A stretch of DNA of 64,000 bases, taken from NCBI GenBank assembly GCA_009779935.1, contig WRAX01000006.1:21748-85747 (forward strand), read 5' to 3'. The DNA is from Defluviitaleaceae bacterium (GTDB taxonomy: Bacteria > Bacillota > Clostridia > Lachnospirales > WRAX01). Below the pieces are notes generated by a model. It had not been told where the DNA came from, did not search any database, and was given only the letters and a program-made list of their open reading frames with translations. Positions 1,975 through 18,922 of the stretch are shown one piece after another. The translations under genes were made by a program, and so were the position numbers. Positions within the stretch are counted from its first letter, which is position 1. Every line of letters begins with the position of its first letter.

Positions 1975-2009
1975 AAAATCCAACATAGGTTTTCCCTATG
2001 TTGGATTTT
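1975..2009 (+). terminator. 15-bp perfect hairpin, possible terminator
   Basis: aaaatccaacatagg (1975-1989), loop ttttc, then cctatgttggatttt (1995-2009). The U-rich 3' arm lies downstream of the 107-aa gene. Confidence 0.4.
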
Positions 2010-2241
2010 AACACGCTATTAAGTATTAAGATATTTAGAATTTACTTATTAAAATCTTTATGAATTAAATACTCACTCTCCCGCCCTTCGGTTGGGTGTG
2101 TGTTTACAACAATGATGACTTGGTTGCAATCTAAAATCTTTAACTGGCTGAAAATGAAAAAAATAAGGCCTTGCGCTTAGGTGCTTCAGCGCGCTACAAT
2201 TATTTTGGGGAGATATAACCAAAAATTAGGAGCGTGATTTT

Positions 2242-2745: not shown

Positions 2746-2773
2746 TGCCATTAAAATAGAAAGGAAGTGAAAA

Positions 2774-3121: not shown

Positions 3122-3140
3122 TCCAATACAAATTCACTTA

Positions 3141-3181
3141 GCAGCGGAACGCTTAGAAAAAAGCGTTCCGCTGCTTTTTTG
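3141..3181 (+). terminator. rho-independent terminator
   Basis: A 12-bp stem, gcagcggaacgc (3141-3152) with gcgttccgctgc (3163-3174), followed by TTTTTT. Confidence 0.8.
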
Positions 3182-3251
3182 TTTGCAAAACTGTTAAGCA
3201 CAGCGAAACAAATTTTGCAAATGGGGTCGAGGGGAAGCCCCTCGCAAGCGG

Positions 3252-3322
3252 CTGTGTTGCAACACAGACATTGCTTGCCTGTTTACCTGTTTACCTGTTT
3301 ACTCTGAAGCCCTTGTGTTTAC
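3252..3322. repeat. 16-bp perfect palindrome plus 8-bp tandem repeats
   Basis: The palindrome is ctgtgttgcaacacag (3252-3267). ctgtttac occurs three times in perfect tandem (3279-3302), with a further tgtttac at 3316-3322. Confidence 0.6.
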
Positions 3323-3573
3323 TGTGGTTTGGGATTTCGCCTCCAAAATGCACATTTATATGAATACATCTGAAAGGCTGCTTGAACAGCAGTCAATTAA
3401 GTTATCCACAATTTATGTGCAGCGCAAATTTGTAATTGTGCTGGGTCTAAATTTCTGGTATAATGTAAAATGAGGATAAGTGTGCAGATGTGCTTGTCAT
3501 AAATCATCATTTCATTTGCGCCTAATGCCTGCGTACAAGCAATCTTACAAACAGTTTCAGGGGGAACACATAT

Positions 3574-5166
3574 ATGGCAAAGATAAAAGTAAAGACAAAA
3601 ACAACCGAGCAAACATTGGAAACAATTATGATGAATTGCCGCAACGCCCTCCGTGGAACAATTGGCGGTAACGAAAAAAATCGTGATGCGGTTTTGGGAT
3701 TGGTGTTCCTAAAATTTGCAGGTTTCAAATTTGAAAATCGCCGTGCTGAAATTATTGAACAGTATGGTGATGTTCCTGCGTTTTTGGAGAAGAAGTCTTT
3801 TTATCTTTCCGAAAATGTTTTCTTCCTAAACGAAACATCACGCTGGAGTCATATTGAAATCAACGCAAGCGCAAATGATATTGCAGTAATCATTGACACA
3901 GCAATGAGGGATATTGAAGATGGCAACCCTCCGCTTAAAGGTGCGTTACCACAAAATTTTTATGTAACACTCGGCACTCGTCCTGAGCAATTGAAAGCGT
4001 TGATAGATGAGATAAACAAAATTGACGACAAACGTTTTCATGAGAGTGATTTAATTGGGCGTGTTTACGAATATTTTTTACAAGTGTTCGCAATTGATTC
4101 TGGCACAAGCAACGAAAAGGGCGAGTTCTACACTCCAGCCAGTATTGTTCAATTGATTGCTGAATTGATTGAGCCGTATTCGGGTGTGGTGTATGACCCC
4201 TGTTGCGGTTCGGCGGGAATGTTTGTGTCCTCCATCAAATTTGTGGAGCGGCACAATGGCAACCGCTCAAAAATTTCTGTGGTTGGGCAGGAACGCAACC
4301 CCGATACTTGGCGGCTTGCAAAAATGAACCTTGCAATTCGTGGAATTGCCCATAATCTTGGCGAACGGCCAGAATCCACTTTTGCGGAGGATTTGAACAA
4401 AGGCAAAATGGTTGACTTTATCATGGCAAACCCGCCGTTCAATTTGAAATTGGGTGCGCAAGGAGTAGCGCAAGACAATATGAACAGCGACCCCCGTTGG
4501 GATGGCTATACTCCACCACCAGTTTCAAATGCCAACTATGCGTGGATTTTGCATATGTTATCAAAACTGGATGTAACCAACGGCATCGCTGGATTTTTGC
4601 TTGCTAACGGTGCATTAAACGCTGATGGTGTTGAAGGTGAAATTCGCAAAGGATTGATTGAGAATGACAAGATTGAAGCCATTATCGTCCTTCCGCGCGA
4701 AATGTTCTACTCCACTGACATTTCCGTAACCTTTTGGATTTTGAACAACAATAAAAATGCACGTATACTAAATGGACGACAGTTGAGGGATAGGCGTGGC
4801 GAAGTCCTTTTTGTTGACTTGCGCCGTTGGAATGACAATATTTATGAAAAGAAATATGTGCAATTTTCTGACGAGCAGATTGATAACATAAAGAAAATCT
4901 ATACAAGCTGGCAAACAGGGGTTGATTATCAAGATGTGCCTGAATTGTGCCGTTCTGCGACAAAAGATGAAATAAAGGCACAAAAATATTCCCTTGCTCC
5001 CAGCAAGTACATTGAGTTTATAGACCATGATATGGAAATTGACTATGCAAGAGAAATGGCACGTATTCAAAGTGAGATGCGTGAGGTGTTGAGAGCAGAG
5101 AAGAAAGCCCAGTCGATGCTGGAAGTAGCTTTTAGGGGGATTGGATATGGCATTGACCAAAAATAG
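3574..5166 (+). CDS. hsdM: type I restriction-modification system methyltransferase subunit
   Basis: Carries the N6-adenine MTase motifs (VYDPCCGSAGMF, FIMANPPFN) on an HsdM-type N-terminal domain. An AGGGGG RBS is present. Confidence 0.9.
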   Translation: MAKIKVKTKTTEQTLETIMMNCRNALRGTIGGNEKNRDAVLGLVFLKFAGFKFENRRAEIIEQYGDVPAFLEKKSFYLSENVFFLNETSRWSHIEINASANDIAVIIDTAMRDIEDGNPPLKGALPQNFYVTLGTRPEQLKALIDEINKIDDKRFHESDLIGRVYEYFLQVFAIDSGTSNEKGEFYTPASIVQLIAELIEPYSGVVYDPCCGSAGMFVSSIKFVERHNGNRSKISVVGQERNPDTWRLAKMNLAIRGIAHNLGERPESTFAEDLNKGKMVDFIMANPPFNLKLGAQGVAQDNMNSDPRWDGYTPPPVSNANYAWILHMLSKLDVTNGIAGFLLANGALNADGVEGEIRKGLIENDKIEAIIVLPREMFYSTDISVTFWILNNNKNARILNGRQLRDRRGEVLFVDLRRWNDNIYEKKYVQFSDEQIDNIKKIYTSWQTGVDYQDVPELCRSATKDEIKAQKYSLAPSKYIEFIDHDMEIDYAREMARIQSEMREVLRAEKKAQSMLEVAFRGIGYGIDQK

Positions 5167-6280
5167 GTTAGGTAATTATATTGAACGTGTTGAACGCCGA
5201 AATTCAGAGCTGAAGTTCGGTGCGCTTGATGTTCGAGGTATTTCCAACAGTAAAGAAATTCAATCCACAAAAGCTAATATATCCGAGCGTTCATTTTTGC
5301 GATTTCAAATTGTTAATCCGCATGAATTTGTGTTCAATAGACGGACAACACGTATGGGAGAGAAACTAGGGCTTGGGTATAATGATATGGATGAACCCTT
5401 CATCGTTACTGAAGATTATGTTGTTTTTCGAGTCGTTGATGAAAAAATTTTATTGCCAGACTACCTCAATGTGTTTTTTCGACGTCCTGAGTTTGACCGT
5501 TATGCACGCTGGGACTCGTGGGGTAGTGCTACGGAGTTCTTTAACTGGGAGGAAATGTGTGATGTGCCAATTGACATTCCACCGCTGCCAAAGCAACAAA
5601 AATTTGTTGATGTTTATAATGCCATGCTTGCCAATCAGCGTGTTTATGAGGATAGTTTAAGTGACTTGGAAACTGCTATTTCTGCAAGCATTGAAGAATT
5701 TAAACATATCGCCCCTCGAATAGCAGTTGGCAAGCTGCTTGAAGAAGTAGACAATCGAAACCGTGATGACTCATTGTCGAATGTTCAAGGGATTAACATT
5801 AACAAAAAGTTTATGCCCTCGATAGCCAACTTAAGCACAACCGACCTTACGAAATACAAAGTTATACAGAGGGGTCAGTTTGCGTATAGTGCCATGCAAA
5901 CAGGGCGTGATGAGTGTATCCGTATAGCATTATTTCACGAGGATGAACCTGTGATAATTTCTCCTGCGTACTCGGTTTTGCAAGTCAAAACAGGAGTGGA
6001 GCGTCCTGTTCTTGCGGAGTATATAAAACTTTGGTTTAGTCGTAGCGAAAGTGATAGATATGGTTGGTTCATTAGCGATAGCAGTATTCGTGCAAGTTTG
6101 GAGTTGTCGAGGTTTTATGAAATAGAGATACCTCTGCCCTCTTTAGAAAAGCAACAAGCCGTTGTTAATTTTTACAACGCAAAGCACATGATAACCGAAA
6201 ATGTATCAAAAATAAGCAAACTTTTGAAAGAAATTTGCCCCATACTAATAAAAGGCTCGCTCGAAGAAGCCGAAGCGTAA
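5141..6280 (+). CDS. hsdS: type I restriction-modification system specificity subunit
   Basis: The start overlaps the hsdM 3' end. The protein has two target-recognition halves separated by conserved spacers (PPLPKQQKFVDVYNAM... and LPSLEKQQAVVNFYNAK...). Confidence 0.85.
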   Translation: MDMALTKNRLGNYIERVERRNSELKFGALDVRGISNSKEIQSTKANISERSFLRFQIVNPHEFVFNRRTTRMGEKLGLGYNDMDEPFIVTEDYVVFRVVDEKILLPDYLNVFFRRPEFDRYARWDSWGSATEFFNWEEMCDVPIDIPPLPKQQKFVDVYNAMLANQRVYEDSLSDLETAISASIEEFKHIAPRIAVGKLLEEVDNRNRDDSLSNVQGININKKFMPSIANLSTTDLTKYKVIQRGQFAYSAMQTGRDECIRIALFHEDEPVIISPAYSVLQVKTGVERPVLAEYIKLWFSRSESDRYGWFISDSSIRASLELSRFYEIEIPLPSLEKQQAVVNFYNAKHMITENVSKISKLLKEICPILIKGSLEEAEA

Positions 6281-6321
6281 ATTGTGCCAACACTGTCGGC
6301 ACAATTTTAGGAGGTACGAAG

Positions 6322-7350
6322 GTGCTTATAAACAACAACGAGTATTTTGAGATTTTAGAAAGTGTTAAAACGCATATAAACTGTGCCCAACACAAGGCTG
6401 TGATGGGGCTTAATCGTGAGCAGATAATCCTTTATTGGAACATTGGCAGGGTTATTTTGGATAATGCCAAATGGGGTAATAAGTTTGTGGACAACCTTGC
6501 AAAAGACATTAAACTGGAGTTTCCAAACGCAAAGGGTTATTCGGTGCGGAACTTGAAGTATATGCGCAAATTTGCTGAATTTGTGGATGATTTAGAAATT
6601 GTGCAGACACTGTCGGCACAATTGACATGGTCGCATAATAGGCTATTGCTCGACAAAACAAAATCGCTTGGTGAATATTTATGGTATGCGGATAGAACCG
6701 TGCAAGATGGGTTGTCGTTGTCTGGCTTGGAAAACCGCATTGAGCTAAAGAACTACGAGCGACAGGCAACATCAGAAAAAGTTGAAAATTATGGGCGATT
6801 ACTACCAGCACCACAAAACAGCTTAGTGACCGAAACGTTGAAAAGTCCTTATCTTTTCGACTTTATAGAGAAACATGACGATATTATCGAGCGCGAAATA
6901 GAACATGAACTTGTTGCAAATATTGTAAAAACACTCTTGGAACTTGGTACAGGGTTTGCGTTTATTGACAAACAATACACGCTGACCGTGGCGGATGTAG
7001 ATTATCATTGCGATTTGCTTTTTTACAATACACGGTTGCGTTGTTATGTCGTGATTGAGTTAAAGGCGGGCAAGTTTAAGCCCGAATACGCAGGTAAGTT
7101 GAATTTTTATTTATCTGCCGTAGACGATATGTTAAAGCATGAGCATGACAATCCAACTATCGGAATTATTCTATGCAAACATCGTGACAAGCTAACTGCC
7201 GAATACGCACTCAAAGACATTCATAAACCGATAGGCGTTAGCGAATATAAGTTATCTGATTTTGTGCCGGAGGAGCTGGCTGATACCCTGCCATCTGCGG
7301 AGGATATAGAGAAGCGGATAAAGCAGAAATACAAAATCATGGAAGATTAG
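6322..7350 (+). CDS. PDDEXK nuclease-domain protein (DUF1016/YhcG-like) embedded in the type I R-M operon
   Basis: GTG start 7 nt after AGGAGG. Shows the N-terminal pattern ILYWNIGRVI...GYSVRNLKYMRKFAEF and the C-terminal DLLFYNTRLRCYVVIELKAGKFKPEYAGKLNFY (D...ELK nuclease core). Confidence 0.7.
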   Translation: MLINNNEYFEILESVKTHINCAQHKAVMGLNREQIILYWNIGRVILDNAKWGNKFVDNLAKDIKLEFPNAKGYSVRNLKYMRKFAEFVDDLEIVQTLSAQLTWSHNRLLLDKTKSLGEYLWYADRTVQDGLSLSGLENRIELKNYERQATSEKVENYGRLLPAPQNSLVTETLKSPYLFDFIEKHDDIIEREIEHELVANIVKTLLELGTGFAFIDKQYTLTVADVDYHCDLLFYNTRLRCYVVIELKAGKFKPEYAGKLNFYLSAVDDMLKHEHDNPTIGIILCKHRDKLTAEYALKDIHKPIGVSEYKLSDFVPEELADTLPSAEDIEKRIKQKYKIMED

Positions 7351-7366
7351 ACGAGGGGGCTTTGCT

Positions 7367-10300
7367 GTGGATTACAATTTTGTTAGAGGGCAATTTACCG
7401 AAGCAGAGCTTGAAAAGGCTATTATTAGCCTGTTTGAAGCGCAGGACTATACCCATCTTCGTGGCGATGAAATCCATCGCAAACTTGATGAGGTTTTGCT
7501 AAAAGATGATTTGAGAGCATATCTCATGAATCAATACAGCGATTTAACCTCGGCTGAAATCGAAAAGATTGTCAGTCGCTTGGATAATATTCCATCAACA
7601 CCACTCTATCAATGCAACAGGGAAACATTTTTGCTGATAAATGAGGGGTTTAGCTTTTTACGTGACGATGCAAACAAACCATCGATACACATCAACTATA
7701 TAAATTTTGGCGACCAGCAAACGAATGTTTTTAAGGTGGTTAGTCAATTTGCCGTGCAAGGTGAAATCCTACGAAGGCCAGACTTGTTGCTATATATTAA
7801 CGGAATCCCTGTGGCTATTTTCGAGTTTAAGTCTGCAATAAGGGAAGAAGCCGTTATACATGATGCGTGGAAACAAATAACAATCCGCTATAATCGTGAT
7901 ATTCCAAAACTGATGAAATATTGCTTTTTAGCGGTTATAAGCGATGGCGCAAACACCAAAATGGGAAGCATTTTCACTCCATATGAATATTTCTATGCTT
8001 GGAATAAAATCAATGAAAACGAGAAAGCCAGTAACGGCATAGCATCTCTGCTGACGATGGTTAGGGGTGCATTTGCCCAAGACCGTGTTTTAGCAATTAT
8101 GAGGGATTTTGTTTATTATCCTGACGACAGCTCAAAAAGTGAAGCCATTGTTGCTCGATATCCGCAGTTCTTTGCTGCACAAAAAATGTTTGAGAATATC
8201 AAGGCACATATTAAACCGCATGGCGATGGTAAGGGTGGCACTTATTTTGGCGCGACTGGCTGCGGAAAAACATATACAATGCTGTTTCTTGCTCGTCTGC
8301 TCAATCAACATGACAGGGAGATTTTTAGAAACCCGACAATTATCATAATTACAGACCGTGAGGACTTGGATAGACAGACATCGGGTTTATTTGTCGAGTC
8401 AAAACGCTATCTTCGTGACAAAAATGTGCGAAGCATTGAAAATAGAAAGATGTTGCAAGAAGTGTTGGCAGAAAAAGATTCGGGAGCCGCAAGTGGTGGT
8501 GTGTATTTAACTACGATACAGAAATTTTGTGAAGAAACCGGCTTATTGTCTGACCGTGAGAACATCATCTGTATTTCTGACGAAGCCCACCGCACACAAA
8601 CTGGTGTTGGTGCAAAGTTGAAAACCACTGAAAAAGGCGTATTTACTTCGTATGGCTTTGCAAAATATTTGCGTGATAGCTTTCCAAATGCTACATATTG
8701 CGGTTTCACAGGAACGCCAATTGACGAAACAATAGCTGTTTTTGGCGAAGTTGTTGACAGTTATACAATGAAAGAATCAAGTGATGACGGCATTACCGTT
8801 CGCATCGCTTATGAACCACGCTTGGCAAGGGTTATTCTTTCTGACGAGCAGGCAAAAGAAATTCAAAAATACTATGATAGATGCACCGAGGAGGGGTCTA
8901 ATCCTGAGCAAGTAGAGGAAAGCAAAAAGGCCATGAGCCAGATGCGAAAAGTGCTTGGGCATCCTGATAGGCTTAAAAAGTTAGCGTACGACATTGTGCA
9001 TCACTATGAGGCGTTGACGGAGCAAAAGCCCGAAATTGTGCAGAAGGCTATGATTGTGTGTGCAAGCAGGGAAATCGCTTTTGACTTGTGGAAAGAATTA
9101 ACAGCACTTCGCCCAAGTTGGAACGAGCCGAAAAAATCTGAAAATGATTCAGCCTTGTCAAAAGAACAGTTAGAAAAATTAACTCCGCTTGAAAAGATTA
9201 AGCTGGTTGCCACGCGCGGTAAAGATGATGAGCGTGATATGTATAATTTGCTTGGCACAAAAGAATATAGACAAATGCTGGACAAGCAATTCAAGAATGA
9301 CGATTCCAACTTCAAAATTGCAATTGTTGTTGATATGTGGATTACTGGCTTTGATGTGCCGTCACTTGCTGTCATTTATGTAGACAAGCCATTGCAAAAA
9401 CACACGCTGATACAAACAATTTCGCGTGTTAATCGTGTTTTTGACGGCAAAGATATGGGCTTAGTGGTCGATTACATTGGCATAAAGCAAGATATGCTTG
9501 AGGCTATCAAGAAATATAGCAAGCCACAAGAAAGTCCCATTGAGGAAATAACGATTTCGTTGGTGGTTTTTCGAAACCATTTAGCACTCATAAACGAGTT
9601 GATGTATGAATTTGATGCTAAAAACTTCTATGCAGGGGAGCCGCTTGAGCGGCTGCTCTGCTTGGAATATGCCGCTCAATTTGTTCAGATAAAGAAGGAT
9701 AGAGAAAGTAGCTTCATGAGCTTATCTCGTAAGCTCAAAGCGGCGTATGATATTTGCTTTCCGACTGGAGAATTGACAGATACAGAAATCACTCAAGCTC
9801 AATTTTATCTTGCCATTCGTTCAATCATTTATAAGCAAACCAAGGGCGATGCCCCTGATGCAGAGACAATGAATCGAGTAGTTGAGAAAATGGTGCAAGA
9901 TGCTATCACTTGTACAGGTATCGAAAATATCGTAAACGCTGAAAAACCAGAAGATTTGTTCAGCGATGATTTTATGAAGCAACTTGACGAGATAAGCCTA
10001 CCAATTTCCAAATTTAACGCCCTGCTGAAATTGTTGCGAAAAGCTGTATCGGGATACGGCAAAGTAAATAAAGTGAAGGCGTTGGAATTTGATAAACGGC
10101 TTAGAGCCGTTGTTGAAAGCTATAACAATAGAGATAATCTTGTCTTTACAAGTGAAGTTGTCGCAGATTTCATTAACGGGCTATCGGACGAGCTTGTAAA
10201 AATTCTTTGCGATTTACAAGATGATAAAACTTCATTTGAAAGCATGGGCATAACTTACGAAGAAAAGGCGTTTTATGACATTCTTGTGAAAGTGCGTGAT

Positions 10301-10537
10301 GACCACGGATTTAAGTACGAGGATGAAAAATGCCTTGTGCTGGCAAAGAAAATCAAAGAGCTTGTTGATGATAAATCGCAATTTGCTGACTGGGCTGTGC
10401 GTGATGATATTAAGTTTCAGCTAAACAGAGACTTGACTGTGTTGCTTTATGAGAGCGGTTATCCGCCAGAGTGGGATGAAGAAATTTTTGAGAGAGTGTT
10501 GGAACAAGCAGAGAATTTCAAAAAATGGGCGGATTAA
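7367..10537 (+). CDS. hsdR: type I restriction enzyme endonuclease/helicase subunit
   Basis: Has an N-terminal nuclease motif (PDLLLYINGIPVAIFEFKS) and SF2 helicase motifs (GATGCGKTYT, CISDEAHRTQ). 1056 aa. Confidence 0.9.
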   Translation: MDYNFVRGQFTEAELEKAIISLFEAQDYTHLRGDEIHRKLDEVLLKDDLRAYLMNQYSDLTSAEIEKIVSRLDNIPSTPLYQCNRETFLLINEGFSFLRDDANKPSIHINYINFGDQQTNVFKVVSQFAVQGEILRRPDLLLYINGIPVAIFEFKSAIREEAVIHDAWKQITIRYNRDIPKLMKYCFLAVISDGANTKMGSIFTPYEYFYAWNKINENEKASNGIASLLTMVRGAFAQDRVLAIMRDFVYYPDDSSKSEAIVARYPQFFAAQKMFENIKAHIKPHGDGKGGTYFGATGCGKTYTMLFLARLLNQHDREIFRNPTIIIITDREDLDRQTSGLFVESKRYLRDKNVRSIENRKMLQEVLAEKDSGAASGGVYLTTIQKFCEETGLLSDRENIICISDEAHRTQTGVGAKLKTTEKGVFTSYGFAKYLRDSFPNATYCGFTGTPIDETIAVFGEVVDSYTMKESSDDGITVRIAYEPRLARVILSDEQAKEIQKYYDRCTEEGSNPEQVEESKKAMSQMRKVLGHPDRLKKLAYDIVHHYEALTEQKPEIVQKAMIVCASREIAFDLWKELTALRPSWNEPKKSENDSALSKEQLEKLTPLEKIKLVATRGKDDERDMYNLLGTKEYRQMLDKQFKNDDSNFKIAIVVDMWITGFDVPSLAVIYVDKPLQKHTLIQTISRVNRVFDGKDMGLVVDYIGIKQDMLEAIKKYSKPQESPIEEITISLVVFRNHLALINELMYEFDAKNFYAGEPLERLLCLEYAAQFVQIKKDRESSFMSLSRKLKAAYDICFPTGELTDTEITQAQFYLAIRSIIYKQTKGDAPDAETMNRVVEKMVQDAITCTGIENIVNAEKPEDLFSDDFMKQLDEISLPISKFNALLKLLRKAVSGYGKVNKVKALEFDKRLRAVVESYNNRDNLVFTSEVVADFINGLSDELVKILCDLQDDKTSFESMGITYEEKAFYDILVKVRDDHGFKYEDEKCLVLAKKIKELVDDKSQFADWAVRDDIKFQLNRDLTVLLYESGYPPEWDEEIFERVLEQAENFKKWAD

Positions 10538-10571
10538 CGAGTAAATATATAGGCATCGGAGGAAGCGATAA

Positions 10572-12644
10572 ATGGTATTGAAAAAAATAAAGCTGAAGAA
10601 TTTTAGGTGCTTCGGTAGCGATGAAACTACCATTTCTTTTGATGACCTTACAGCATTTATCGGCGCAAACAGTACGGGTAAAACAGCAGCCATGCAAGCT
10701 ATTGTAAAACTCTTTGGTATGAATCAATCTGAGCGCGAGATACGTCGTTCGGATTTTCACTTAACCACAAACAAGTCACCAGATGATGATGAAACAATAA
10801 CTCTTTCGATAGAAGCTGTGTTAGAGTTCCCAGAACTTGAAGATGAAAGTATACCTACAGATGCAGTTGCCCACTTCTTCAAATATTTTGTCGTTGATGA
10901 AAAAGGACAGCCTCCTTATTTGCGAATTTTATTGGAATCAATATATACAAAGGATGGAACAATAGAAGGCGATGTTGATACTCGTTATTATTTTGTCACT
11001 TCCAGCGAAAAGTTAGCTATTGAAGAAACCGATAAGCGACCAACCCGCTACAGTTCTTTTTCGACAATAAGGTGTATTTATGTTCCTGCATTACGTAATA
11101 CAAGCGAACAGTTGAAGAATGTTTCTGGCACAATGTTGTATCGATTGTTAAACAGCATCGATTGGGAGGAAAGCTCGGCTGCGTTGGAAGGTCATATGAA
11201 GAAAGTTAATGACGAGATAGTCAAAGTCCCGGGAGTTAGTGATTTGCAAGATATTTTGCAAGGACAGTGGCACGGATTTCATAATGACGGGCGATACACT
11301 AACACAAAAATTGAGTTTAATTCTACAGACATGGAGAGCGCACTAAAAACGGCATCTATTAAATTTTCTCCTACAGAGATACCGCGCGATTATGAAATTA
11401 ACGAGCTTGGCGATGGTCTTCGTTCATTGTTTTACTTTTCTTTGGTTAATACGCTATTACGAACTGAGCAAAAGATTTTAGAATCCATTGAAAAAGGTGA
11501 TATTCAGGCAAAAGCACCAAAAATTACGCCCCCTGTTCTAACTATATTAGTTGTAGAAGAACCCGAAAATCATATATCGCCACAACTAATGGGTAGGGTT
11601 ATTAAGAACATTAAAGATATTGCTACTATCAACAATGCCCAGACGGTTCTGTCTTCACACACCCCAGCAATAATTAAGCGAATTGAGGCTACGAAAATTC
11701 GCCATTTTGGATATGGTAACGACCAAAAATGCTCAAAAGTAATGAGTGTATTGCTCCCAAAAAATGAGGATGTTGCCTATAAGTATGTGAAAGAAGCCGT
11801 GGAATCTTATCCCGAAGTTTATTTTGCAAGGCTTGTTATATTAGGCGAGGGTGATAGCGAAATGTCGCTACTACCGAAAGTAATTGAAGGTGCAAGTGAA
11901 AATATAGATGTGATGGGTATTTCTGTGGCACCGCTCGGAGGTAGGCACGTTAATCATTTTTGGAGATTACTTAACCAACTTGAAATACCACACATTACGC
12001 TCTTGGATTTAGATAGAGAGCGTAATGGCGGTGGTTGGGGGCGAATTAAATATGTCATTAAACAACTACTGGAAAATGGAATTGATAAAAGCGTATTATT
12101 CAACATAAATTGTAATGACAAACTTACTGACGACTGCTTAGAAAAAATGCACGAACGGGAGCAGTCTCGGGTAACAGATATGGATTCGTGGATTGGCTGT
12201 CTTGAAAAATACAACATATTTTTCTGCGCTCCTCTCGATTTGGATTTTTTAATGCTCGAAAAATATACAGAAACATATAAGGCAACCATCGAGAAAGGTC
12301 ATGGACCTGAAATTAAGGGTGTTGGAAAAGTAAAGGACATTGAACACTGTAAGCCGCCCAAGGAGGAGTATACGAGTCGAATAAAAAGCAGTATAAAGCA
12401 TACCCTTAAACAAGAGGGCGGTGATGGCGAAACGTATTCACATGAGCAACAGAAACTGATGGTTTGGTATGATTATCTTTTTCTAAATCGAAGCAAGCCT
12501 GTTACCCATTTGAAAGCCTTATCTTCTCTGGATTTTGATGATATTGCATTGTATCCAGAGCCATTAAATAAAATCGTGCAATATGTAAAAAAATGCTTAT
12601 TGAGGGAGATTCAAAATGGGGTTGGAGATAATATCACCCAATGA
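10572..12644 (+). CDS. OLD-family ATP-dependent endonuclease (ABC-type ATPase plus Toprim), GajA-like
   Basis: Walker A GANSTGKT, Walker B-like LVVEEPENHISP, and Toprim motifs LVILGEGDSEMSLLP and LLDLDRE. A GGAGG RBS is present. Confidence 0.8.
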   Translation: MVLKKIKLKNFRCFGSDETTISFDDLTAFIGANSTGKTAAMQAIVKLFGMNQSEREIRRSDFHLTTNKSPDDDETITLSIEAVLEFPELEDESIPTDAVAHFFKYFVVDEKGQPPYLRILLESIYTKDGTIEGDVDTRYYFVTSSEKLAIEETDKRPTRYSSFSTIRCIYVPALRNTSEQLKNVSGTMLYRLLNSIDWEESSAALEGHMKKVNDEIVKVPGVSDLQDILQGQWHGFHNDGRYTNTKIEFNSTDMESALKTASIKFSPTEIPRDYEINELGDGLRSLFYFSLVNTLLRTEQKILESIEKGDIQAKAPKITPPVLTILVVEEPENHISPQLMGRVIKNIKDIATINNAQTVLSSHTPAIIKRIEATKIRHFGYGNDQKCSKVMSVLLPKNEDVAYKYVKEAVESYPEVYFARLVILGEGDSEMSLLPKVIEGASENIDVMGISVAPLGGRHVNHFWRLLNQLEIPHITLLDLDRERNGGGWGRIKYVIKQLLENGIDKSVLFNINCNDKLTDDCLEKMHEREQSRVTDMDSWIGCLEKYNIFFCAPLDLDFLMLEKYTETYKATIEKGHGPEIKGVGKVKDIEHCKPPKEEYTSRIKSSIKHTLKQEGGDGETYSHEQQKLMVWYDYLFLNRSKPVTHLKALSSLDFDDIALYPEPLNKIVQYVKKCLLREIQNGVGDNITQ

Positions 12645-14499
12645 GTGGGTGCCTCAAAACATAAAACTGGAAAAGGCAGCTATGGAAGCGGTTGTCAGTT
12701 CATCAAATACGTTGATAATCGCTGGTCCGGGGGCTGGTAAAACTGAAATGCTCAGTCAACGAGCTTGCTTTTTGTTGCAAACAAACACTTGCCCATCACC
12801 CAAGCGTATCCTTGCTTTGTCTTTTAAGAAAGATGCAGCAAGCAATTTATCTGAGCGTGTACTAAAGCGTTGCGGAAAGATGTTAGCCAACAGATTGGAA
12901 TCACTCACTTTTGATGCGTTCGCTAAAGAAATATTGGATAGGTTTTATATGGCATTACCCGAAAATTTTCGTCCTGCAAAGGATTACTTTGTAGACTTGA
13001 GCTCTGAACTGCTGAGAAGGGCGTATGAATTAGCTGGGTTGCCTTACGTTAGAGAGTCTGCGACAGATGATAGAACAAATATCAAAGCTCCTGTTATGAA
13101 AATTTTACTTCACGGAAATAAAAATGCGGATTTCCAGCCTGCACTTACTTTTACGACAATTTCACGTTTAGCAAATTACTTATTGAAAGAAAATCCGCTT
13201 ATAATCAAGGCTTTACAGCTTACTTATAGTCACATTTTTTTAGATGAGTTTCAAGACACTACAACCGTACAATACAATCTTGCCAAAACTTGTTTCTTGT
13301 CAACAAGCTGCATTATAACTGCTGTTGGCGACCAAAAACAACGAATTATGGGTTGGGCTGGAGCAATGTATGATGCCTTTGACAAGTTTCAACACGATTT
13401 TGGAGCTGTTGAAAAAGCTTTAGTCATGAATCATCGTTCGGTGCCTAAGTTGGTCAAAGCCCAGTACCAGTTGTACAATATATTGTCCTCATCTGATTTA
13501 ACGGCTAATGCCAACGTCAGTTTGCACACAAGTGAGGGCTGCATAATGTCACATACGTTCGCATCGCAAATTGATGAATCAAAATACTTGAAAAATGACA
13601 TCAGAATCAAGTTGAAGAACGGAATACAACCACGTGATATTTGCATTTTAACAAAGCGGTCTATTAGCGAATATTGCCATGATTTGTTGGGTGACATAGA
13701 GGGGACGAATTTTGCGATTAGAGATGAAAGCGTTTACCAAGACTTATTAAAAGAAGATTTGGTGAAGGTTTTATACGCTTTTCAATTATGTGGAAAAAAG
13801 AACAGGGGAACAGCAGAAGCCTTTGAGTATCTACAAGAGCTATATTTACAATTTAACTCCGTTGAGATTGATGATGTAGATAAAGTGAATATTTGCTCTG
13901 CACAGTTAAATAAATCAATACATGACATGGGCATGAAAATGGCAAAAATCACTGGGAAAACCCCTGATGAAAAAGATGCGTTTTTGGATATACAAAATGA
14001 AATCATCAGTTTTTTTGACAAAAACAAGTTCATGAAACACTTCCCGCAGTATCAAAACGGTAATTTCTTCAACGAAACATTGCAAAAGTTTATTGACCTG
14101 CTTTGGGCTGAGTTTGAAAAATCTAATGATTGGAAAACAGCACTTTCTACCTTCGAGGGGAACTTATCTGTACCTGTTATGACGATTCATAAAAGTAAAG
14201 GTCTGGAATTTGATTGTGTTTATTTCGTAGGTTTAGAAGATAACTCATTTTTTACCTTCCAACACAATCGTAGCGAAGATATATGTGCCTTTTTTGTCGC
14301 AGTTTCAAGGGCAAAAAACGAACTGCACTTCACAAGATGCCTAAATAGAACTTCACTCAACAACAATTCTGGCGCACAGAGCATAACGACAATTAAAGCG
14401 ATTCATGATGCAATAGAAAGTATTGCCGATATAGAATTTTATGACCATACATCAAATGAAGAATTGAGTAACGACCACATAGCAACAAGCCTTATCTAA
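12616..14499 (+). CDS. UvrD/PcrA-type SF1 helicase, GajB-like
   Basis: Motifs AGPGAGKTE, FLDEFQDTT and MTIHKSKGLEFDCVYFVG. The start overlaps the upstream OLD-family gene by 29 nt. Confidence 0.8.
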   Translation: MGLEIISPNEWVPQNIKLEKAAMEAVVSSSNTLIIAGPGAGKTEMLSQRACFLLQTNTCPSPKRILALSFKKDAASNLSERVLKRCGKMLANRLESLTFDAFAKEILDRFYMALPENFRPAKDYFVDLSSELLRRAYELAGLPYVRESATDDRTNIKAPVMKILLHGNKNADFQPALTFTTISRLANYLLKENPLIIKALQLTYSHIFLDEFQDTTTVQYNLAKTCFLSTSCIITAVGDQKQRIMGWAGAMYDAFDKFQHDFGAVEKALVMNHRSVPKLVKAQYQLYNILSSSDLTANANVSLHTSEGCIMSHTFASQIDESKYLKNDIRIKLKNGIQPRDICILTKRSISEYCHDLLGDIEGTNFAIRDESVYQDLLKEDLVKVLYAFQLCGKKNRGTAEAFEYLQELYLQFNSVEIDDVDKVNICSAQLNKSIHDMGMKMAKITGKTPDEKDAFLDIQNEIISFFDKNKFMKHFPQYQNGNFFNETLQKFIDLLWAEFEKSNDWKTALSTFEGNLSVPVMTIHKSKGLEFDCVYFVGLEDNSFFTFQHNRSEDICAFFVAVSRAKNELHFTRCLNRTSLNNNSGAQSITTIKAIHDAIESIADIEFYDHTSNEELSNDHIATSLI

Positions 14500-14929
14500 A
14501 TTGCGAAATCTAACCGAATTTGCTACCCCATTCCAATGCGCTACATTTATCACAGTGGCAATTTGCCACCGCTCACAAAAATACAAACTGGGTAAAACGT
14601 ATCCATTATCACCACAGTGGAGTGTATGGAAAGGAAGTGATTTCTGCAAAAAGAAACTAAAATTGGCAGAACAACGTACATAATCAACGGAAAATATCAA
14701 GCAGAGGGTGTTGGAGGCTACTCTCTGCTTTGCTTCGTTTGATGGAAAAAGACTTGCCGAAAACAGCAAGTAGCGTTATTGAAATATGTGAAGGCAAGGA
14801 AAAGTCGTGTATCGAAAATAATTTCGATTATTTTCAAAAAACAGCGGCATTTACGCCAAGGGTATGTTATAATAAGAGCATATCTCAAAACGATTTGGTC
14901 TGTTCGCTACAAGCAAAGGAAATTTGATT

Positions 14930-15594
14930 GAAGCTTACGAGCAGCTAATGGACTTCATTTCACGCCACACACTTGACAGATTTTTCCTTGTGGGCAACCA
15001 GCGTGTTAGTGTGTGTCTTGGATTGCGCGTGAGCTCGTGAGCAATATTCTTGTCCATAGGGAATTTAGCAGAGGATATATGGCACGAATCATCATCGAAA
15101 AAGACCGCATACTTGCGGAAAACTGGAACAGGCCGACACGCTCGGGGCGATTGACCCTCGAAGGCTTTAAGCCCGACCCCAAAAATCCATTGCTTGCGCA
15201 TTTTTTTATTCAAATCGGACGGGCTGATGTGCTTGGCTCGGGTGTTCGTAATTTATATAAATACACGCAGATATATTCGGGCGGAGAACCACAGCTTATT
15301 GAAGACGATATTTTTACAACAATCATTCCGTTGAAATCAGAAACAAATGGGAAGATAGAGGAAGTTAGAAAGGAAGTTATAGCGGAAGTAAATTTGTCGC
15401 AAGAAAAACTAAATAACTTGCTTGAATACTGCATTACGCCAAAGAGCAGAAAAGAGATGCAAGATTTTTGCGGTATAAAATCCGACGAACATTTTCGCTC
15501 AACGGTGGTTAAACCAATGCTACACCTCGGTCTAATTAAAATGACAAGCCCAAATAAACCAAAAAGTAGAAGCCAGAAGTATTATAAGGCGTGA
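14930..15594 (+). pseudogene. 5'-truncated, frameshifted remnant of an ATP-binding putative DNA-binding protein (HATPase_c_4 type)
   Basis: EAYEQLMDFISRHTLDRFFLVGNQRVS is in one frame (about 14935-15020). ARELVSNILVHREFSRGYMARIIIEKDRILAENWNRP... continues in another (15013-15594). No N-terminal domain is present upstream. Confidence 0.55.
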
Positions 15595-15618
15595 AAACAA
15601 GCGCAAAGGAGGACACCT

Positions 15619-16089
15619 ATGGGAACCAACTACTATTTTAGAAAAAAAGACGTTGATATGCCTCGGTTATATGCAATCGTCGATGCTTTGAATGCGGAGT
15701 GCAAAGTATTAGTCGCAAAGTATAACGAATTGTTGAATGAAGCGCGGCGTGAAATGGGCATCGGATACAAGCGTGAACTTGAACATTGGAACACTTACAT
15801 CTTGCCTGATGAAGGTGATGATATTGGCGATATTCATGTTGGGAAAATTTCCTATGGCTGGAAGCCGCTGATGAAGGCTGGCGAACATTTTCATTCTATC
15901 GAAACATTGCAGCGATGGTATGAGCAAAACAGGGGTGAGTATATCTTTATTGACGAATACGGCAAAACTAATTTACTTGAGGAATATTTGCTTGAAATCC
16001 GCAAAAGAAACGAGGATGCACAGAACAAAACTCATGATTACCCGATAGGTGCGGACGGATTTGAATGGACGAGCAGAGAGTTTTGTTAA
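15619..16089 (+). CDS. hypothetical protein
   Basis: A 156-aa ORF with a strong AAGGAGG RBS. No family recognised. Confidence 0.6.
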   Translation: MGTNYYFRKKDVDMPRLYAIVDALNAECKVLVAKYNELLNEARREMGIGYKRELEHWNTYILPDEGDDIGDIHVGKISYGWKPLMKAGEHFHSIETLQRWYEQNRGEYIFIDEYGKTNLLEEYLLEIRKRNEDAQNKTHDYPIGADGFEWTSREFC

Positions 16090-16161
16090 GGAAGAAGCTA
16101 ACCACTTTTTAAGCTGAACGTGTGGCGCATAAGTGCGCATTATAAACTTATAGTCATGTGC

Positions 16162-16373
16162 TTTCTAAGTTTTGCCGAAAAGTTTCTAAGTTTTGCCCGA
16201 AACTTTATAATTTTTCCTGTTTTTGATGTGCTACAATATATGTGAGGGGAACTGTGGGAAGGACTTGTTTGCGAGGTGTCTAAGAATTTCTAAAAATGTA
16301 TAAGAAGTGTCTGAGGATGTCTAAGAAAGTATAAGAATTGTCTATGGATTTCTGGTTTTTGCTGTGCTATGAT
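16162..16373 (+). promoter_or_regulatory. repeat-rich control region: direct repeats, iteron-like array and two near-identical extended -10 promoter modules
   Basis: tttctaagttttgcc(c)gaaa occurs twice (16162-16202). TTTTTGaTGTGCTAcAAT (16220-16237) and TTTTTGcTGTGCTAtGAT (16356-16373) are near-identical modules. About seven GT(C/A)TAAGAA-like units at roughly 10-11 nt spacing lie at 16276-16350. Confidence 0.4.
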
Positions 16374-16379
16374 TAAAAT

Positions 16380-16486
16380 GCGGAGGAATGCCGAAGAATT
16401 GATTTGATGTGTAGATTCTCTGCCTTTTTATTTCCCACATAAATTTGTTTTCAACCACCATTCCCTACCGGGTTGGTGGTTTTTTA
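16380..16486 (+). ncRNA. candidate small transcript (second promoter module to intrinsic terminator)
   Basis: The TGcTATGAT element ends at 16373 and a strong terminator lies at 16453-16486. Only tiny ORFs fall between them. Confidence 0.2.
16453..16486 (+). terminator. rho-independent terminator
   Basis: An 8-bp stem, aaccacca (16453-16460) with tggtggtt (16474-16481), running into a T-run. Confidence 0.6.
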
Positions 16487-16563
16487 TTGCCCTCAAAAAT
16501 CTAAATGGGCAAGCGTGACCGTTAGCATTGGCTATAGCGGGCGTTGTGAAAAGGAGATGATTC

Positions 16564-16815
16564 ATGCAAGGAAACGACAAGAAAATGGGTGCTACGAAAA
16601 GAGAGTCAAGCATACCTTTTAACAGGGGTGATGCTATGGTTAAAGTTACCACGCCAATCTGTGGGGCGAATGACCTTGCCTTTGCGCATTGGCAGCAGTA
16701 CGCTAACGAAAAGGCCTATGAGGCGAAATTGATTACAAAAGCGATGTATGAATTTGCACGGGATGAAATACATAAAACTATTGCACTCCTGTCCGAAGTG
16801 CGCTACAATGTATAG
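16564..16815 (+). CDS. small protein immediately upstream of the recombinase; candidate accessory or directionality factor
   Basis: An 83-aa ORF with an AAAGGAG RBS, ending 19 nt before the recombinase start. No family recognised. Confidence 0.5.
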   Translation: MQGNDKKMGATKRESSIPFNRGDAMVKVTTPICGANDLAFAHWQQYANEKAYEAKLITKAMYEFARDEIHKTIALLSEVRYNV

Positions 16816-16833
16816 TAAAGGCAGGTGTGTGTT

Positions 16834-18885
16834 ATGGATTTAATGAAAATGCGTAAGCTACTTGGTCAGGGCAAGTCCATTTACGACTTGCCCCTTAGGG
16901 TGGCGTATTATGCCCGTGTGTCTTCCGATACGGATATGCAACTGAACTCGCTAGACAACCAAATTACATACTTTGATGAGTTCATCAAGTCCAACAAAAA
17001 TTGGACTTTTGCAGGCGGTTATGTTGATGAAGGGTTATCTGGTGCAAGTGTAAAAAAGCGTGATGATTTTAAGAGAATGGTTGCTGATGGTGAATTGGGC
17101 AAGTTTGATTTGCTGATAACTAAGGAAATCAGCCGATTTGCTCGTGATACGCTGGATAGTATTCAATATACACGACAATTGCTTGCAAGCAATGTGGGCG
17201 TGTTTTTTCAAGCGGACAATATTTGTACGCTTTATTCAGATTCGGAATTACGACTAACCATCATGGCTTCTTTGGCGCAGGACGAGCTTCGCCGTTTGTC
17301 CGAGCGTGTGAAGTTTGGCATGAAGCAAGCGCACAAGGCGGGCAAGGTGCTTGGGCAGGATAATATGTACGGATATAAAAAGTCAAAGGGTAAACTTGTT
17401 GTTGATGAAAAGGAGGCGAAGTTTGTTCATGACTTGTATAGCTTGTATGCGGAGGACAAGTATGGTTTCCGTACTTTGGCACGGATTTTGCACGAGAAAG
17501 GCTATCGCAACCAATCGGGGGGTGAAATTAACCCAGGCAGCTTGAAAAGTATTTTGTCTAACCCGAAGTACAAAGGCTTTTACCACGGACATATCACGGA
17601 GAGTAATGACTATCGAGAGCAGAAAAAGGTCAAGACTGCGCTTGAGGATAGAATCCTGTATAAATGTGAAGAAGTCCCCGCAATCGTGTCGGAGGAGCTT
17701 TGGGAGAAGGTTAATGAAATTCTGGCTGTCCGCACATCAAAGTTTGCGAAAAAAGGGCGTGGTACAGTTCCGCAAACGCCTTATAGCGGAAAAGTTATTT
17801 GTGAGGAACACGGAACATTTCACTATCGCAAGATGTGGAAAGACCGTAAAATCCCTGCCGAGAGCTGGTGTTGTAAGGAGTATCTTGCAAAGGGTCGAAA
17901 GTTTTGTGCAACGCCGCATTTGTATACTCGGGATTTAGATGCCATACTTGAACACATAGGCGATGATTTGCTGTCCAACAAAGATAAGTATATGGCAAGC
18001 GTGGATAACCTATTGGCGATGTACGAAAAAGCCGACAACGGCGCATCTGCGGACTACGTAGGCGAAACCGCAAAACTAATGACTGCTATAAAGAAGAATA
18101 AGGCGCGGCAAGCTAAATTGGTGGAGCTATACACTGATGAAATCATTGACCGAAACGAGTTTGATGAGTTAAATACAAATCTCAAAAATGACACAGAACA
18201 ACTCAACATGGAAATTGCACGACTTAAAGAAGAAAAGAAAGCCGTAAACACAACGGCGGCACGGTTGACAAAGGTCAAGGAATTTTTCGCCACACTTTCG
18301 CCTGAGAAAATGCAGGCAACCGCTTCAAGACAAAGCGAAACCCAAATCTCTCCCGCTCTCCATGTCGCACAAGCCATGTTGGAATCTGTCACCATTCTCA
18401 AAGATAGCACTAAAACGGAAATGAAAATCCGCATTGACATGAAATTGGGTGGTACGACCGACTGCACCCTCGCTACTTTCGGCAAGCGGGATGCCACAGA
18501 GCATTTTGTTCTGGATGCTGAGGAAATTGAAAAAATCCTACGCTCAGACCCACCCGATGAATATGCTGAAAACCTTGAAGATGCTGGATTAACTGGCTTT
18601 GACAACAAAAATGTTATAAAGTACAGTCAAACCGAAATAAGCCCCATTGTGGGCAGCGAGCAAGAAAGCCGTGATTTAGTGGACTATTTTAACCGTGAGA
18701 TGGCGGAGCATCCTGATAAGATTTGGGAGCTTAATATGTTTGGCAAATCCATGCACAGCATGGTACGGGACGGATTACAAAACAAGCTGTACCGTATGCC
18801 GGACGATGCCCAGGTTAAAATGCAGGAAGCCTTGCAAAAAATCATAAACGAAGGCAGTGGGGGCATGGTTTGTATCTTGTTGTAA
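16834..18885 (+). CDS. large serine recombinase (SpoIVCA/TnpX-like) whose ORF continues in frame into the 3' 82 codons of spoIVA
   Basis: Resolvase catalytic domain (VAYYARVSSDTDMQLNSLDNQ...ISRFARD), recombinase domain, Cys-rich zinc ribbon and a coiled coil. A DUF4368-like segment (MLESVTILKDSTKTEMKIRIDMKLGG) follows. No stop codon occurs before 18885. Confidence 0.9.
   Translation: MDLMKMRKLLGQGKSIYDLPLRVAYYARVSSDTDMQLNSLDNQITYFDEFIKSNKNWTFAGGYVDEGLSGASVKKRDDFKRMVADGELGKFDLLITKEISRFARDTLDSIQYTRQLLASNVGVFFQADNICTLYSDSELRLTIMASLAQDELRRLSERVKFGMKQAHKAGKVLGQDNMYGYKKSKGKLVVDEKEAKFVHDLYSLYAEDKYGFRTLARILHEKGYRNQSGGEINPGSLKSILSNPKYKGFYHGHITESNDYREQKKVKTALEDRILYKCEEVPAIVSEELWEKVNEILAVRTSKFAKKGRGTVPQTPYSGKVICEEHGTFHYRKMWKDRKIPAESWCCKEYLAKGRKFCATPHLYTRDLDAILEHIGDDLLSNKDKYMASVDNLLAMYEKADNGASADYVGETAKLMTAIKKNKARQAKLVELYTDEIIDRNEFDELNTNLKNDTEQLNMEIARLKEEKKAVNTTAARLTKVKEFFATLSPEKMQATASRQSETQISPALHVAQAMLESVTILKDSTKTEMKIRIDMKLGGTTDCTLATFGKRDATEHFVLDAEEIEKILRSDPPDEYAENLEDAGLTGFDNKNVIKYSQTEISPIVGSEQESRDLVDYFNREMAEHPDKIWELNMFGKSMHSMVRDGLQNKLYRMPDDAQVKMQEALQKIINEGSGGMVCILL
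18629..18635. repeat. junction core AAACCGA (putative attR crossover region)
   Basis: Identical to 1440-1446 and in the same codon phase (cAA ACC GAa versus gAA ACC GAg). Confidence 0.6.
18636..18885 (+). other. spoIVA: spoIVA 3' portion (last 82 codons)
   Basis: ISPIVGSEQESRDLVDYFNREMAEHPDKIWELNMFGKSMHSMVRDGLQNKLYRMPDDAQVKMQEALQKIINEGSGGMVCILL* matches the conserved SpoIVA C-terminus (B. subtilis ...RIINEGSGGLIAIIL, from memory). Confidence 0.9.
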
Positions 18886-18896
18886 TTATAATGTAG

Positions 18897-18922
18897 GGTG
18901 GGGCTTGCCCCCACCTTTTTTT
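18897..18922 (+). terminator. rho-independent terminator (spoIVA side)
   Basis: GC-rich stem ggtgggg/ccccacc with loop cttgc, followed by TTTTTTT. Confidence 0.75.

Follow-up and report, generated by a model that had tools for sequence, protein, structure and literature searches.

Sporulation genes reported to be split by intervening elements include sigK, spoIVFB, spoVR, spoVFB, spsM, gerE, kamA, and yabG (PMC6957869, PMC10747680, PMC5595907, PMC4191935). The known class contains skin with SpoIVCA in sigK, SPbeta with SprA-SprB in spsM, gin with GirC-GirX in gerE, yin in yabG, and phi3T in kamA. In C. difficile skin, the large serine recombinase (LSR) is made constitutively from a sigma-A promoter, and a small sigma-E-dependent recombination directionality factor (RDF) times excision (PMC5025042). 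Here we describe an integrated element of ~17.2 kb (1447..18635) that interrupts spoIVA in a 64,000-nucleotide stretch of contig WRAX01000006.1 from a Defluviitaleaceae bacterium. We refer to this whole stretch as the window, and all coordinates are positions on its plus strand unless stated. We consider it quite probable that this is a defence-carrying element in spoIVA with its own LSR, that the attachment site of its free form (attP) lies inside the LSR gene, and that the LSR has two isoforms.

Several systems are known in which integration changes an integrase or its expression. Integration of SSV1 splits int into two non-functional parts, and lambda sib changes only 3′ untranslated RNA. 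In Tn4451, the tnpX promoter arises at the joint of the circle. The closest described case appears to be that of Mx8 IntP/IntX, for which a passage in PMC6070905 (citing Tojo 1996 and Magrini 1999) states that attP is within the integrase coding sequence (CDS), that integration creates a new 3′ end, and that the prophage-form enzyme is active with altered properties. In integration-dependent immunity of the mycobacteriophages BPs, Brujita, and others, attP lies in the open reading frame (ORF) of the phage repressor, and C-terminal tags govern stability (PMC3694055). For satellites with tyrosine integrases, fusions of int and the target gene made by integration have been mentioned as an annotation nuisance (PMC10111431).

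The two parts of spoIVA flank the element in the same orientation. The 5′ part (215..1446) encodes the ATPase and middle domains (Pfam SpoIVA_ATPase, E 1.3e-120; SpoIVA_middle, E 1.3e-64) and ends at the crossover, and the 3′ part (18636..18885) consists of 82 codons and the stop and covers the SpoIVA_C domain completely (positions 1-76 of 76, E 6e-33). When 215-1446 and 18636-18885 are joined in silico, they encode an uninterrupted SpoIVA of 493 aa. The rejoined junction, ASIETE followed by ISPIVGSE, agrees with intact relatives such as P0122 (493 aa, ANIETEISPIVGSE), which is collinear, and the predicted chromosomal site (attB) in the rejoined gene reads CATCGAAACCGAAATAAGCCCC. In Bacillus and C. 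difficile, spoIVA is established as sigma-E dependent in the mother cell, and PMC5025042 includes it among the sigma-E targets. Like skin-type elements, the present element sits in the CDS of a mother-cell sporulation gene with an exact junction, and the predicted precise excision restores the ORF in silico. As in most skin elements, the recombinase gene lies at the element's edge, just upstream of the 3′ gene fragment (bioRxiv 10.1101/2022.02.25.481979). No second spoIVA and no related recombinase were found in the window, and the 3′ part of spoIVA is, when integrated, translated solely as the C-terminus of the recombinase. The host is represented only by a metagenome-assembled genome (MAG; records MCL2854588.1 and MCL2854601.1).

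The recombinase ORF (16825..18885) is open throughout. Its mechanical start is the GTG at 16825; the ATG at 16834 fits the N-termini of relatives (MDL...) and gives a protein of 683 aa, annotated publicly as 'recombinase family protein'. The original prediction, made from the letters of the window, stated that this ORF has no stop before the junction and passes in frame through AAACCGA into 82 spoIVA codons, and all of its coordinates were confirmed. The LSR body contains 601 codons up to the crossover (16834..18635), as defined by Pfam, AlphaFold2 (AF2), and 72 fused homologue clusters. Pfam assigns Resolvase, Recombinase, and Zn_ribbon_recom to residues 24-372 of the 683-aa protein, which continues after KYSQTE as a complete SpoIVA_C domain (residues 608-683). 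The catalytic domain (PF00239, E 2.5e-28, residues 24-171) carries the YYARVSS motif where expected, and it is accompanied by the Recombinase domain (PF07508, E 7e-19) and a zinc ribbon (PF13408, E 4e-5, 24.3 bits, just below the cut-off of 25.3). The best match among solved structures is the catalytic domain of a C. difficile conjugative-transposon recombinase (PDB 3g13, E 7e-41), followed by a much weaker match to the N-terminal domain of TnpX (E 2.7e-07). In the AF2 model of the circle-form protein, the catalytic domain, the recombinase domain, the zinc ribbon, and the coiled coil are built with confidence, with strands at 321-347 and then long helices at 365-487. The enzyme is thus an LSR by its catalytic domain, recombinase domain, and zinc ribbon with coiled coil. 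Pfam assigns no domain to the last ~100 residues or to the tail described below. We note an acidic insertion of ~62 residues (18450-18628, residues ~540-600) that separates the small C-terminal beta domain from the junction; this segment is found in the window protein and three close clusters (P0002-P0004), is open in all four, and is modelled with a predicted local distance difference test score (pLDDT) of ~30.

Joining the inner ends of the element gives a circle-form recombinase of 631 aa, which has its own conserved tail and its own terminator. The chromosome form has 683 aa and takes its 82-residue C-terminal part from SpoIVA and its terminator from spoIVA (18895..18917, found by a terminator scan), which ends the fusion mRNA when the element is integrated. 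Because attP is within the recombinase gene, integration and excision swap both the C-terminus and the terminator. The native tail is located at the other end of the element (1447..1540), where it is recognized by its open frame, its homologous tails, and the selection on its codons. When integrated, it is appended to the truncated host protein: the ORF 215..1540 reads SpoIVA up to ASIETE and then 30 unrelated residues (LLMYKMKVATEWNKRGNTSIDVEYAFRLVA) and a stop, and the reciprocal product of integration is SpoIVA truncated at residue 411 with a 30-residue tail (441 aa, MCL2854588.1, annotated as 'stage IV sporulation protein A'). The original prediction described an open stretch of 31 codons here and 31 foreign residues on SpoIVA; the open frame and the extension hold, and the tail has 30 residues plus the stop codon. 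The strong terminator proposed after the tail was also found, as a 9-bp stem at 1525-1549 with a T-run (1525..1556). Its stem is kept in 10 related loci of the left attachment site (attL), and it is predicted to terminate the mRNA of the recombinase in the circle form and that of truncated spoIVA in the integrated form.

The heptamer AAACCGA is common to attL (core at 1440..1446) and the right attachment site attR (core at 18629..18635), and the likely crossover dinucleotide is GA (1445-1446 in attL). The reconstructed attP reads AAAGTACAGTCAAACC GA GCTGTTAATGTACAAAATGAAGGT, and its predicted junction is ACAGTCAAACCGAGCTGTTAATGTAC. A dyad, GTACA-N18-TGTAC, is centred on this GA, and the outer half-sites, as read from the sequence, agree at 8 of 14 positions. 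GA is also within the cores of both complete elements, AAACCGA in the window and ACCGAGGTAT in a second element (L004 and L006, one contig). In the clostridial LSRs TnpX and TndX, crossover takes place at a GA dinucleotide. The window element probably crosses over at the GA of AAACCGA, 30 codons ahead of the native stop. Positions 1447-1470 would form the right half of attP (TACAAAATGAAGGT), and the last ~25 bp of the recombinase body would form the left half. The segment TACAAAATGAAGGT (codons YKMKV) lies 11-24 bp from the centre of attP, where an LSR half-site is expected, and it is identical, including synonymous positions, in the window, L004, and the phage contig L001, none of which was retrieved by that motif. 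Among the attL loci called by pattern, variation in the YKMKV stretch is confined to the third base of the Val codon; the retrieval pattern itself specified the motif. The symmetry of the site suggests that the whole attP of ~50 bp is inside the codons for NVIKYSQTE (left of the crossover) and LLMYKMKV (right) of the circle-form gene. An exact-pattern scan of viral contigs for the right arm of attP gave chance matches only.

We searched 5.8 billion protein clusters with the circle-form protein as query and examined the 81 best clusters. Resolvase, Recombinase, and SpoIVA_C occur together in 72 of them (49-100% identity), and in these the recombinase part ends with (I/F)(L/S)Y(S/G)xTE and is directly followed by (I/V)SP(I/L)VG of SpoIVA. 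A native stop upstream of 18629 in homologues was looked for, and none of the 72 fused clusters has a stop before the junction. The MAGs behind the fused clusters belong to Defluviitaleaceae, Oscillospiraceae, and other Clostridia, and many of them bear names that indicate termite-gut and human-gut samples. An assembly chimera, or a sequencing error hiding a stop codon, could in principle produce such an ORF, and we found nothing to support it; the same junction and open frame are present in independent ENA, JGI, NCBI, and Logan assemblies and in these 72 clusters, which makes this explanation extremely improbable.

The other side of the insertion is conserved as well. The original prediction asked whether relatives carry a tail like 1447-1540, and homologues of it are carried by 31 truncated SpoIVA clusters and 13 metagenome attL loci. 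These 31 clusters, among the 120 closest to SpoIVA of the window, are cut at IET(E/D) and continue with tails that can be aligned with that of the window (for example ELIYKMKVATQWPKRGNTSIDVEYAFRLVA, VFKYKMKVSLKREKIGIINYDVEYRMVA, VLIYKMTANFKKDKGTTSFDVEYKFCA, and ILPYKMIVSCKREKIGTINYDVEYHIYA); the family pattern is xxxYKMKV-x5-K-x-G-x4-D(V/I)EY-xxxA before the stop. The 13 attL loci were obtained by a pattern scan of metagenome contigs, and 12 of them have an intact 5′ part of spoIVA. The remaining one, L174, contains an attL-like remnant (2009-2050, minus strand) with ~10 spoIVA codons (STHLIRADIETD), preceded by unrelated, stop-containing sequence and followed by the 9-residue tail VFTYKMKVA and a stop; it may be the scar of an imprecise excision or a tandem insertion. 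In total, 35 of the 120 closest SpoIVA clusters (29%) are cut by an insertion, and because of this proportion we regard split spoIVA, as judged from these clusters, as common in these mostly termite-gut, Defluviitaleaceae-like populations. A second class of interruption is found ~8 codons upstream of the IETE site in P0125, P0142, P0156, and P0191, where APSLH(M/I) is followed by (F/L/I)(R/W)NKQK(F/L).. and a stop. This class points to a further element family with a neighbouring target site in spoIVA.

A contiguous, un-integrated gene was also found. P0070 (570 aa, 53% identical) is located in the middle of phage contig L001; genes for HNH, dUTPase, and methylase flank it at one end, and tail-fibre-like and peptidase genes flank it at the opposite end. 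The P0070 ORF extends 27 codons beyond the crossover (ILYSHTE followed by VSTYKMKVSEKLKGKFLNFEIMCNFTI and a stop). No close relative was found among deposited phages. The second complete element, L004/L006, has a length of ~19.6 kb, occupies the same position in spoIVA, and matches the window element at its ends, with the small ORF, the recombinase, and the tail. We note that in the window alone an in-frame junction is expected in 1 of 3 cases, and an open stretch of 31 codons is unremarkable. On the comparative data, rather than the window alone, the predicted arrangement is far beyond chance; the ORF-spanning attachment site deduced from these sequences is conserved across the whole spoIVA family and is not an accident.

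To characterize the tail, we compared 10 distinct attL sequences with the tail subtype of the window. In the codons for KRGNTSIDVEY, synonymous polymorphism (pS) is 0.35 and nonsynonymous polymorphism (pN) is 0.008, giving a pN/pS of 0.02; the K, D, V, E, and Y codons have synonymous variants, compared with a single replacement. The ATEWN segment is variable (pN/pS 0.56). As the 5′ arm of the terminator is formed by the last five codons of this subtype, these do not vary. Other tail types lack the terminator hairpin and still end in Ala, which is encoded by GCA, GCT, GCG, or GCC, and ~80% of the tails in the spoIVA family end in Ala after hydrophobic residues (LVA, MVA, LIA, ICA, IYA, and FCA). 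The pN/pS of KRGNTSIDVEY, the third-position variation, and the conserved Ala show that the tail is a translated sequence under purifying selection. An antisense gene was considered as the source of the constraint and was excluded by the third-position variation in the tail frame. Together with the 72 fused clusters, the homologous tails, the contiguous P0070, and the terminators, this selection supports the original prediction that attP lies inside the recombinase CDS, that the circle form would be properly terminated, and that the C-terminus would depend on the state of integration.

The tail might be selected for an effect on the host protein, for example as an ssrA-like degradation tag (hydrophobic-x-Ala-COOH) on truncated SpoIVA that spares coat assembly, in which case integration would remove the tag from the recombinase. 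The frequency of hydrophobic residues followed by Ala (~80% of family tails, with all four Ala codons used) fits this idea, as does the different end, FTI, of the sole true phage member (L001). There is also a precedent, as C-terminal tags of Rep and Int are kept or removed by integration (PMC3694055). The window contains no gene for transfer-messenger RNA (tmRNA) that would give the host tag for comparison, the last five codons of the window subtype double as a terminator stem, and sister clades at other targets also keep conserved tails, which points to a role in the recombinase itself. We view selection of the tail for its effect on the host protein as rather improbable.

These sister clades are LSRs with 37-46% identity, found on viral and genomic contigs, that show the same ORF-internal break ~30 codons ahead of the stop. 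In the pairs L052/L053, L030/L028, and L067/L073, the DNA agrees at 96-99% as far as a breakpoint within the ORF, and beyond that point identity is 12-30%. For example, L052, in the middle of a phage contig, continues after SVNLF with NPIFTERSTTFYRALRSFPGHKEPVKYTYFFAF and a stop, and L053, at the edge of a viral contig, continues after SVNLF with KKMIEQQERQMSGSSQNEQY and a stop. With L067 as the query, we obtained dozens of natural attP-form proteins, which have a clade-conserved tail, FPE(R/Q)HxxFYRK...(E/N)YxYxLAI, at the end of the protein. On these sequences, a predicted attP ~30 codons before the LSR stop is widespread in LSRs of Clostridia. In abundant clades of gut-phage LSRs, the last 8-65 residues distinguish the integrated from the free form of the same recombinase, and both forms are present in protein databases; one such cluster, P0241 (607 aa), has 976 member sequences.

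In another sister clade, the read-through appears to enter a candidate target gene for a sporulation-type sigma factor. Its members (P0083-P0086, P0088, P0098, P0106, P0107, P0111, P0112, L021, L102, L134, L151, and L160) end with EIGI, SQAQVSRLEKNAL.HMKKY, and a stop, which would be the C-terminus of that sigma factor, and the phage contig L064 carries an attP-form tail of this clade. The read-through looks most like SigG, which we take to be the candidate target. If it is SigG, a forespore-specific gene is interrupted, which would be unusual.

The gene directly upstream of the recombinase is a small ORF of 83 aa (16564..16815). A homologue is found in this position in 7 of 7 family loci that hold the region (window 16564-16815, L006 9792-10010, L094 9777-9995, L096 9744-9995, L093 3419-3574, L092 316-495, and the phage L001 3146-3268), and it sometimes overlaps the recombinase gene. 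These ORFs share the core motif (I/V)(I/T)xxMYE(F/Y)ARDE(L/I)xKxIxxLxxxxY, and the small ORF has no PHROG match. From its position, size, and conservation, we infer that it is a candidate RDF or accessory protein. This arrangement resembles skr-spoIVCA, in which a small gene also abuts the LSR start and the RDF gene overlaps the LSR 5′ end (PMC6957869). A sigma-A-like promoter for the recombinase (TTGCAC-17-TACAAT, 16781..16809) is located inside the 3′ end of the small ORF. The place of this promoter is kept in relatives at a fixed distance to the recombinase start, and their copies are nearer to consensus (TTGACA-17-TATAAT in L001 and TTGACA-17-TATACT in L094). The window copy has a weak -35 element and was missed by a promoter scan; an extended -10 promoter occurs in relatives and was rejected for the window copy. 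CD1231 is likewise an LSR with a sigma-A-type promoter (PMC5025042).

By analogy with the known class (PMC6957869, PMC5025042), the element would be inherited through the spore and excised under RDF control in the mother cell. Excision would probably take place in the sporulating mother cell with the conserved small ORF as directionality factor, and it would rejoin spoIVA in frame and restore the native 3′ end of the recombinase simultaneously. The excising enzyme would have to be the SpoIVA-tailed isoform, because integrated DNA can make only that form, and the integrating enzyme would be the native-tailed isoform, because only the circle or the phage genome can make it. In the integrated state, the terminator at attL would block transcription from the spoIVA promoter from entering the element.

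What the two isoforms do is a matter on which we propose more than one reading. The native tail may serve the free, integrating form through activity or stability, with the fusion as a tolerated, excision-competent variant, following the logic of Mx8 IntP/IntX; we put this forward tentatively, as the reading that we prefer. An incidental overlap, in which a compact module places attP over the 3′ end of the gene, the isoforms are equivalent, and both extensions are neutral passengers, is also possible and no firmer. TnpX is active without its last ~110 residues, so that C-terminal regions of related LSRs appear to tolerate change. The truncated or different tails of some family members, the lack of a confident AF2 fold for the tail, and the read-through of one sister clade into what resembles non-coding sequence are also in line with neutral passengers. 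A neutral passenger would not be expected to show a pN/pS of 0.02 over 11 tail codons with abundant synonymous change, a conserved stop position and terminal residue, 0 of 72 clusters with a stop before the crossover, and conserved tails inside each sister clade. A further suggestion is that a large group of Clostridia LSRs switch isoform with their integration state as a selected regulatory device: the tail would make the enzyme integration-competent or short-lived, and its loss would give a stable excision form. In the spoIVA family, the tail would also tag truncated SpoIVA, and the SpoIVA domain would couple the recombinase to the sporulation machinery. The original prediction had offered, as speculation, that the swap could tune the activity, stability, or localization of the recombinase. 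The C-terminal region of SpoIVA is needed for its localization in B. subtilis. The SpoIVA C-terminal domain is conserved in any case, as spoIVA needs it. We regard a selected isoform switch with these roles as rather unlikely.

Several observations weigh against the proposal of an excisable element with two functional isoforms. The tail has a pLDDT of ~30-55 in both AF2 models (the window circle form and a natural attP-form sister, the latter with an alignment of 30 sequences), in which the body and a small three-stranded C-terminal domain are built. Tails are short or different in L174, L183, P0230, and P0238, and for this reason the full tail may be dispensable. The tail could also be selected instead for its effect on truncated SpoIVA. 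Integrated read-through in the P0241 clade enters no obvious host ORF, and this contradicts the notion, which we had considered, that recombinases of these clades are always fused in frame to a host gene. Alignment of the family tails with the sister-clade tails by hhalign gave a probability of 0.8%, so we do not claim tail homology across clades and propose only that the architecture is common to them. No convincing sporulation-type promoter (sigma-E or sigma-K) was recognized upstream of the small ORF. Finally, the exact reconstituted SpoIVA and circle-form recombinase are absent from a collection of 15 billion proteins.

This failure of an exact look-up to find the excised form, and a host known only as a MAG, would also fit a dead insertion, in which the element is immobile, spoIVA is a pseudogene of a non-sporulating host, and the fused ORF is a fossil. 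Complete, in-frame halves of spoIVA are present both here and in dozens of diverged hosts. The recombinase lacks none of its domains, the element joins spoIVA exactly, and the tail is under purifying selection. In addition, 29% of the closest SpoIVA clusters are split alike, which argues for an actively spreading family. We consider a dead insertion very improbable, and we retain the proposal of a defence-carrying element with its own LSR.

The gene content of the element comprises a rep-like helix-turn-helix (HTH) protein, TnpV (E 7e-19), a MobC/NikA-like protein, type I restriction-modification (R-M) with PDC-S02, Gabija, the small ORF, and the recombinase, and it also holds two small genes of no assigned family. 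Its GC content of 37-44%, against 47-50% in the flanks, suggests a foreign origin. The defence cargo (3574-14499) consists of type I R-M (M, S, and R) with an embedded PDC-S02/YhcG nuclease, and Gabija (GajA, E 3e-239; GajB, E 2e-198). No virion genes and no TnpZ-type relaxase were found in the element. The cargo of L004/L006 is a different set (RecQ, a 1578-aa helicase, methylase, NTase/HEPN, TnpV, and ResIII), and because of this difference the recombination module is seen, on gene content, as one that shuttles varied defence cargo. A GTG-start ORF of 193 aa (15013-15594) matches only C-terminal pieces of larger proteins (Fic-like_C and HATPase_c_4) and is probably a gene fragment within the element. 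An intergenic array of short direct repeats (16162-16203 and 16277-16338) contains two 21-bp stretches of TTTCTAAGTTTTGCC(C)GAAA, together with at least 4 overlapping TGTCTAAGAA-like units with a period of 10-11 bp; it could be an operator or iteron array.

Comparison with the described systems places the element near several of them. Its target, spoIVA, and its cargo, a defence island of Gabija and type I R-M, differ from those of skin-type elements, and in contrast to skin-type elements as described its LSR ORF runs through the attachment site, giving two isoforms and a conserved native tail. The prophage-like gene content of skin-type elements is absent from the window element; non-prophage cargo is also found in gin, and such elements are already accepted in the class (PMC5595907). 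As in the account of Mx8 cited above, attP of the window element is within the integrase CDS and integration gives a new 3′ end. Unlike the Mx8 enzyme of that account, a tyrosine recombinase, the present enzyme is a serine recombinase, which makes the system an analogue of Mx8 and not a member, and it gains as its new C-terminus an entire folded domain that is read in frame from the target protein. The original prediction drew a parallel to integration-dependent immunity. The analogy is apt, as integration changes the C-terminus of the attP-bearing protein in both; in that system attP is in the repressor gene, which is acted on by a tyrosine integrase and has a demonstrated tag that integration removes (PMC3694055), whereas here the split gene is the recombinase and a degron is conjecture, and Mx8 is closer.

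The element also resembles Tn4451/Tn4453 (TnpX) and Tn5397 (TndX) in its clostridial LSR, a TnpV homologue, a mobilization accessory gene, and the GA dinucleotide, which in our case is deduced from the attP dyad. As in Tn4451, expression of the recombinase would depend on the circular or integrated state. Unlike in Tn4451 and Tn5397, what depends on the state is the 3′ end, with the C-terminus and the terminator, and not the promoter, and the element is site-specific for one gene. It differs further from the Tn4451/Tn4453 group in that no relaxase was found and the recombinase is the last gene, with its own promoter inside the element. Similar to SSV1 and lambda sib, integration separates parts of the int transcription unit and makes int expression or its product state-dependent; unlike in SSV1 and lambda, a host protein domain is appended to the enzyme. 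In a full-text literature search with incomplete coverage, neither an element interrupting spoIVA nor an LSR whose ORF contains attP was found, and the portion of the LSR mining study PMC10083194 that we consulted does not mention attP inside an ORF. What appears to be new, as far as the literature covered can tell, is spoIVA as a target and a defence island as cargo in the class of intervening elements, and, in the arrangement of attP inside int, the serine type of the recombinase, the conservation of the native tail, and the addition of an entire host domain.

These findings add spoIVA, the gene for a universally conserved coat-morphogenesis ATPase, to the sporulation genes split by putatively excisable elements, and the cargo of the spoIVA element is anti-phage defence genes and not a prophage. 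In the spoIVA family, and by DNA breakpoints in three gut-phage sister clades, the integrating and the excising enzymes would be different proteins. To our knowledge, present accounts of LSR directionality invoke the coiled coil and the RDF and nothing else. With a state-dependent C-terminus, LSR control would, if true, gain a further layer. Even without a regulatory function, LSRs mined from integrated prophages for genome engineering may carry host-derived, non-native C-termini. For such clades the annotated LSR is a chimera, and the true enzyme needs to be rebuilt across attL and attR.

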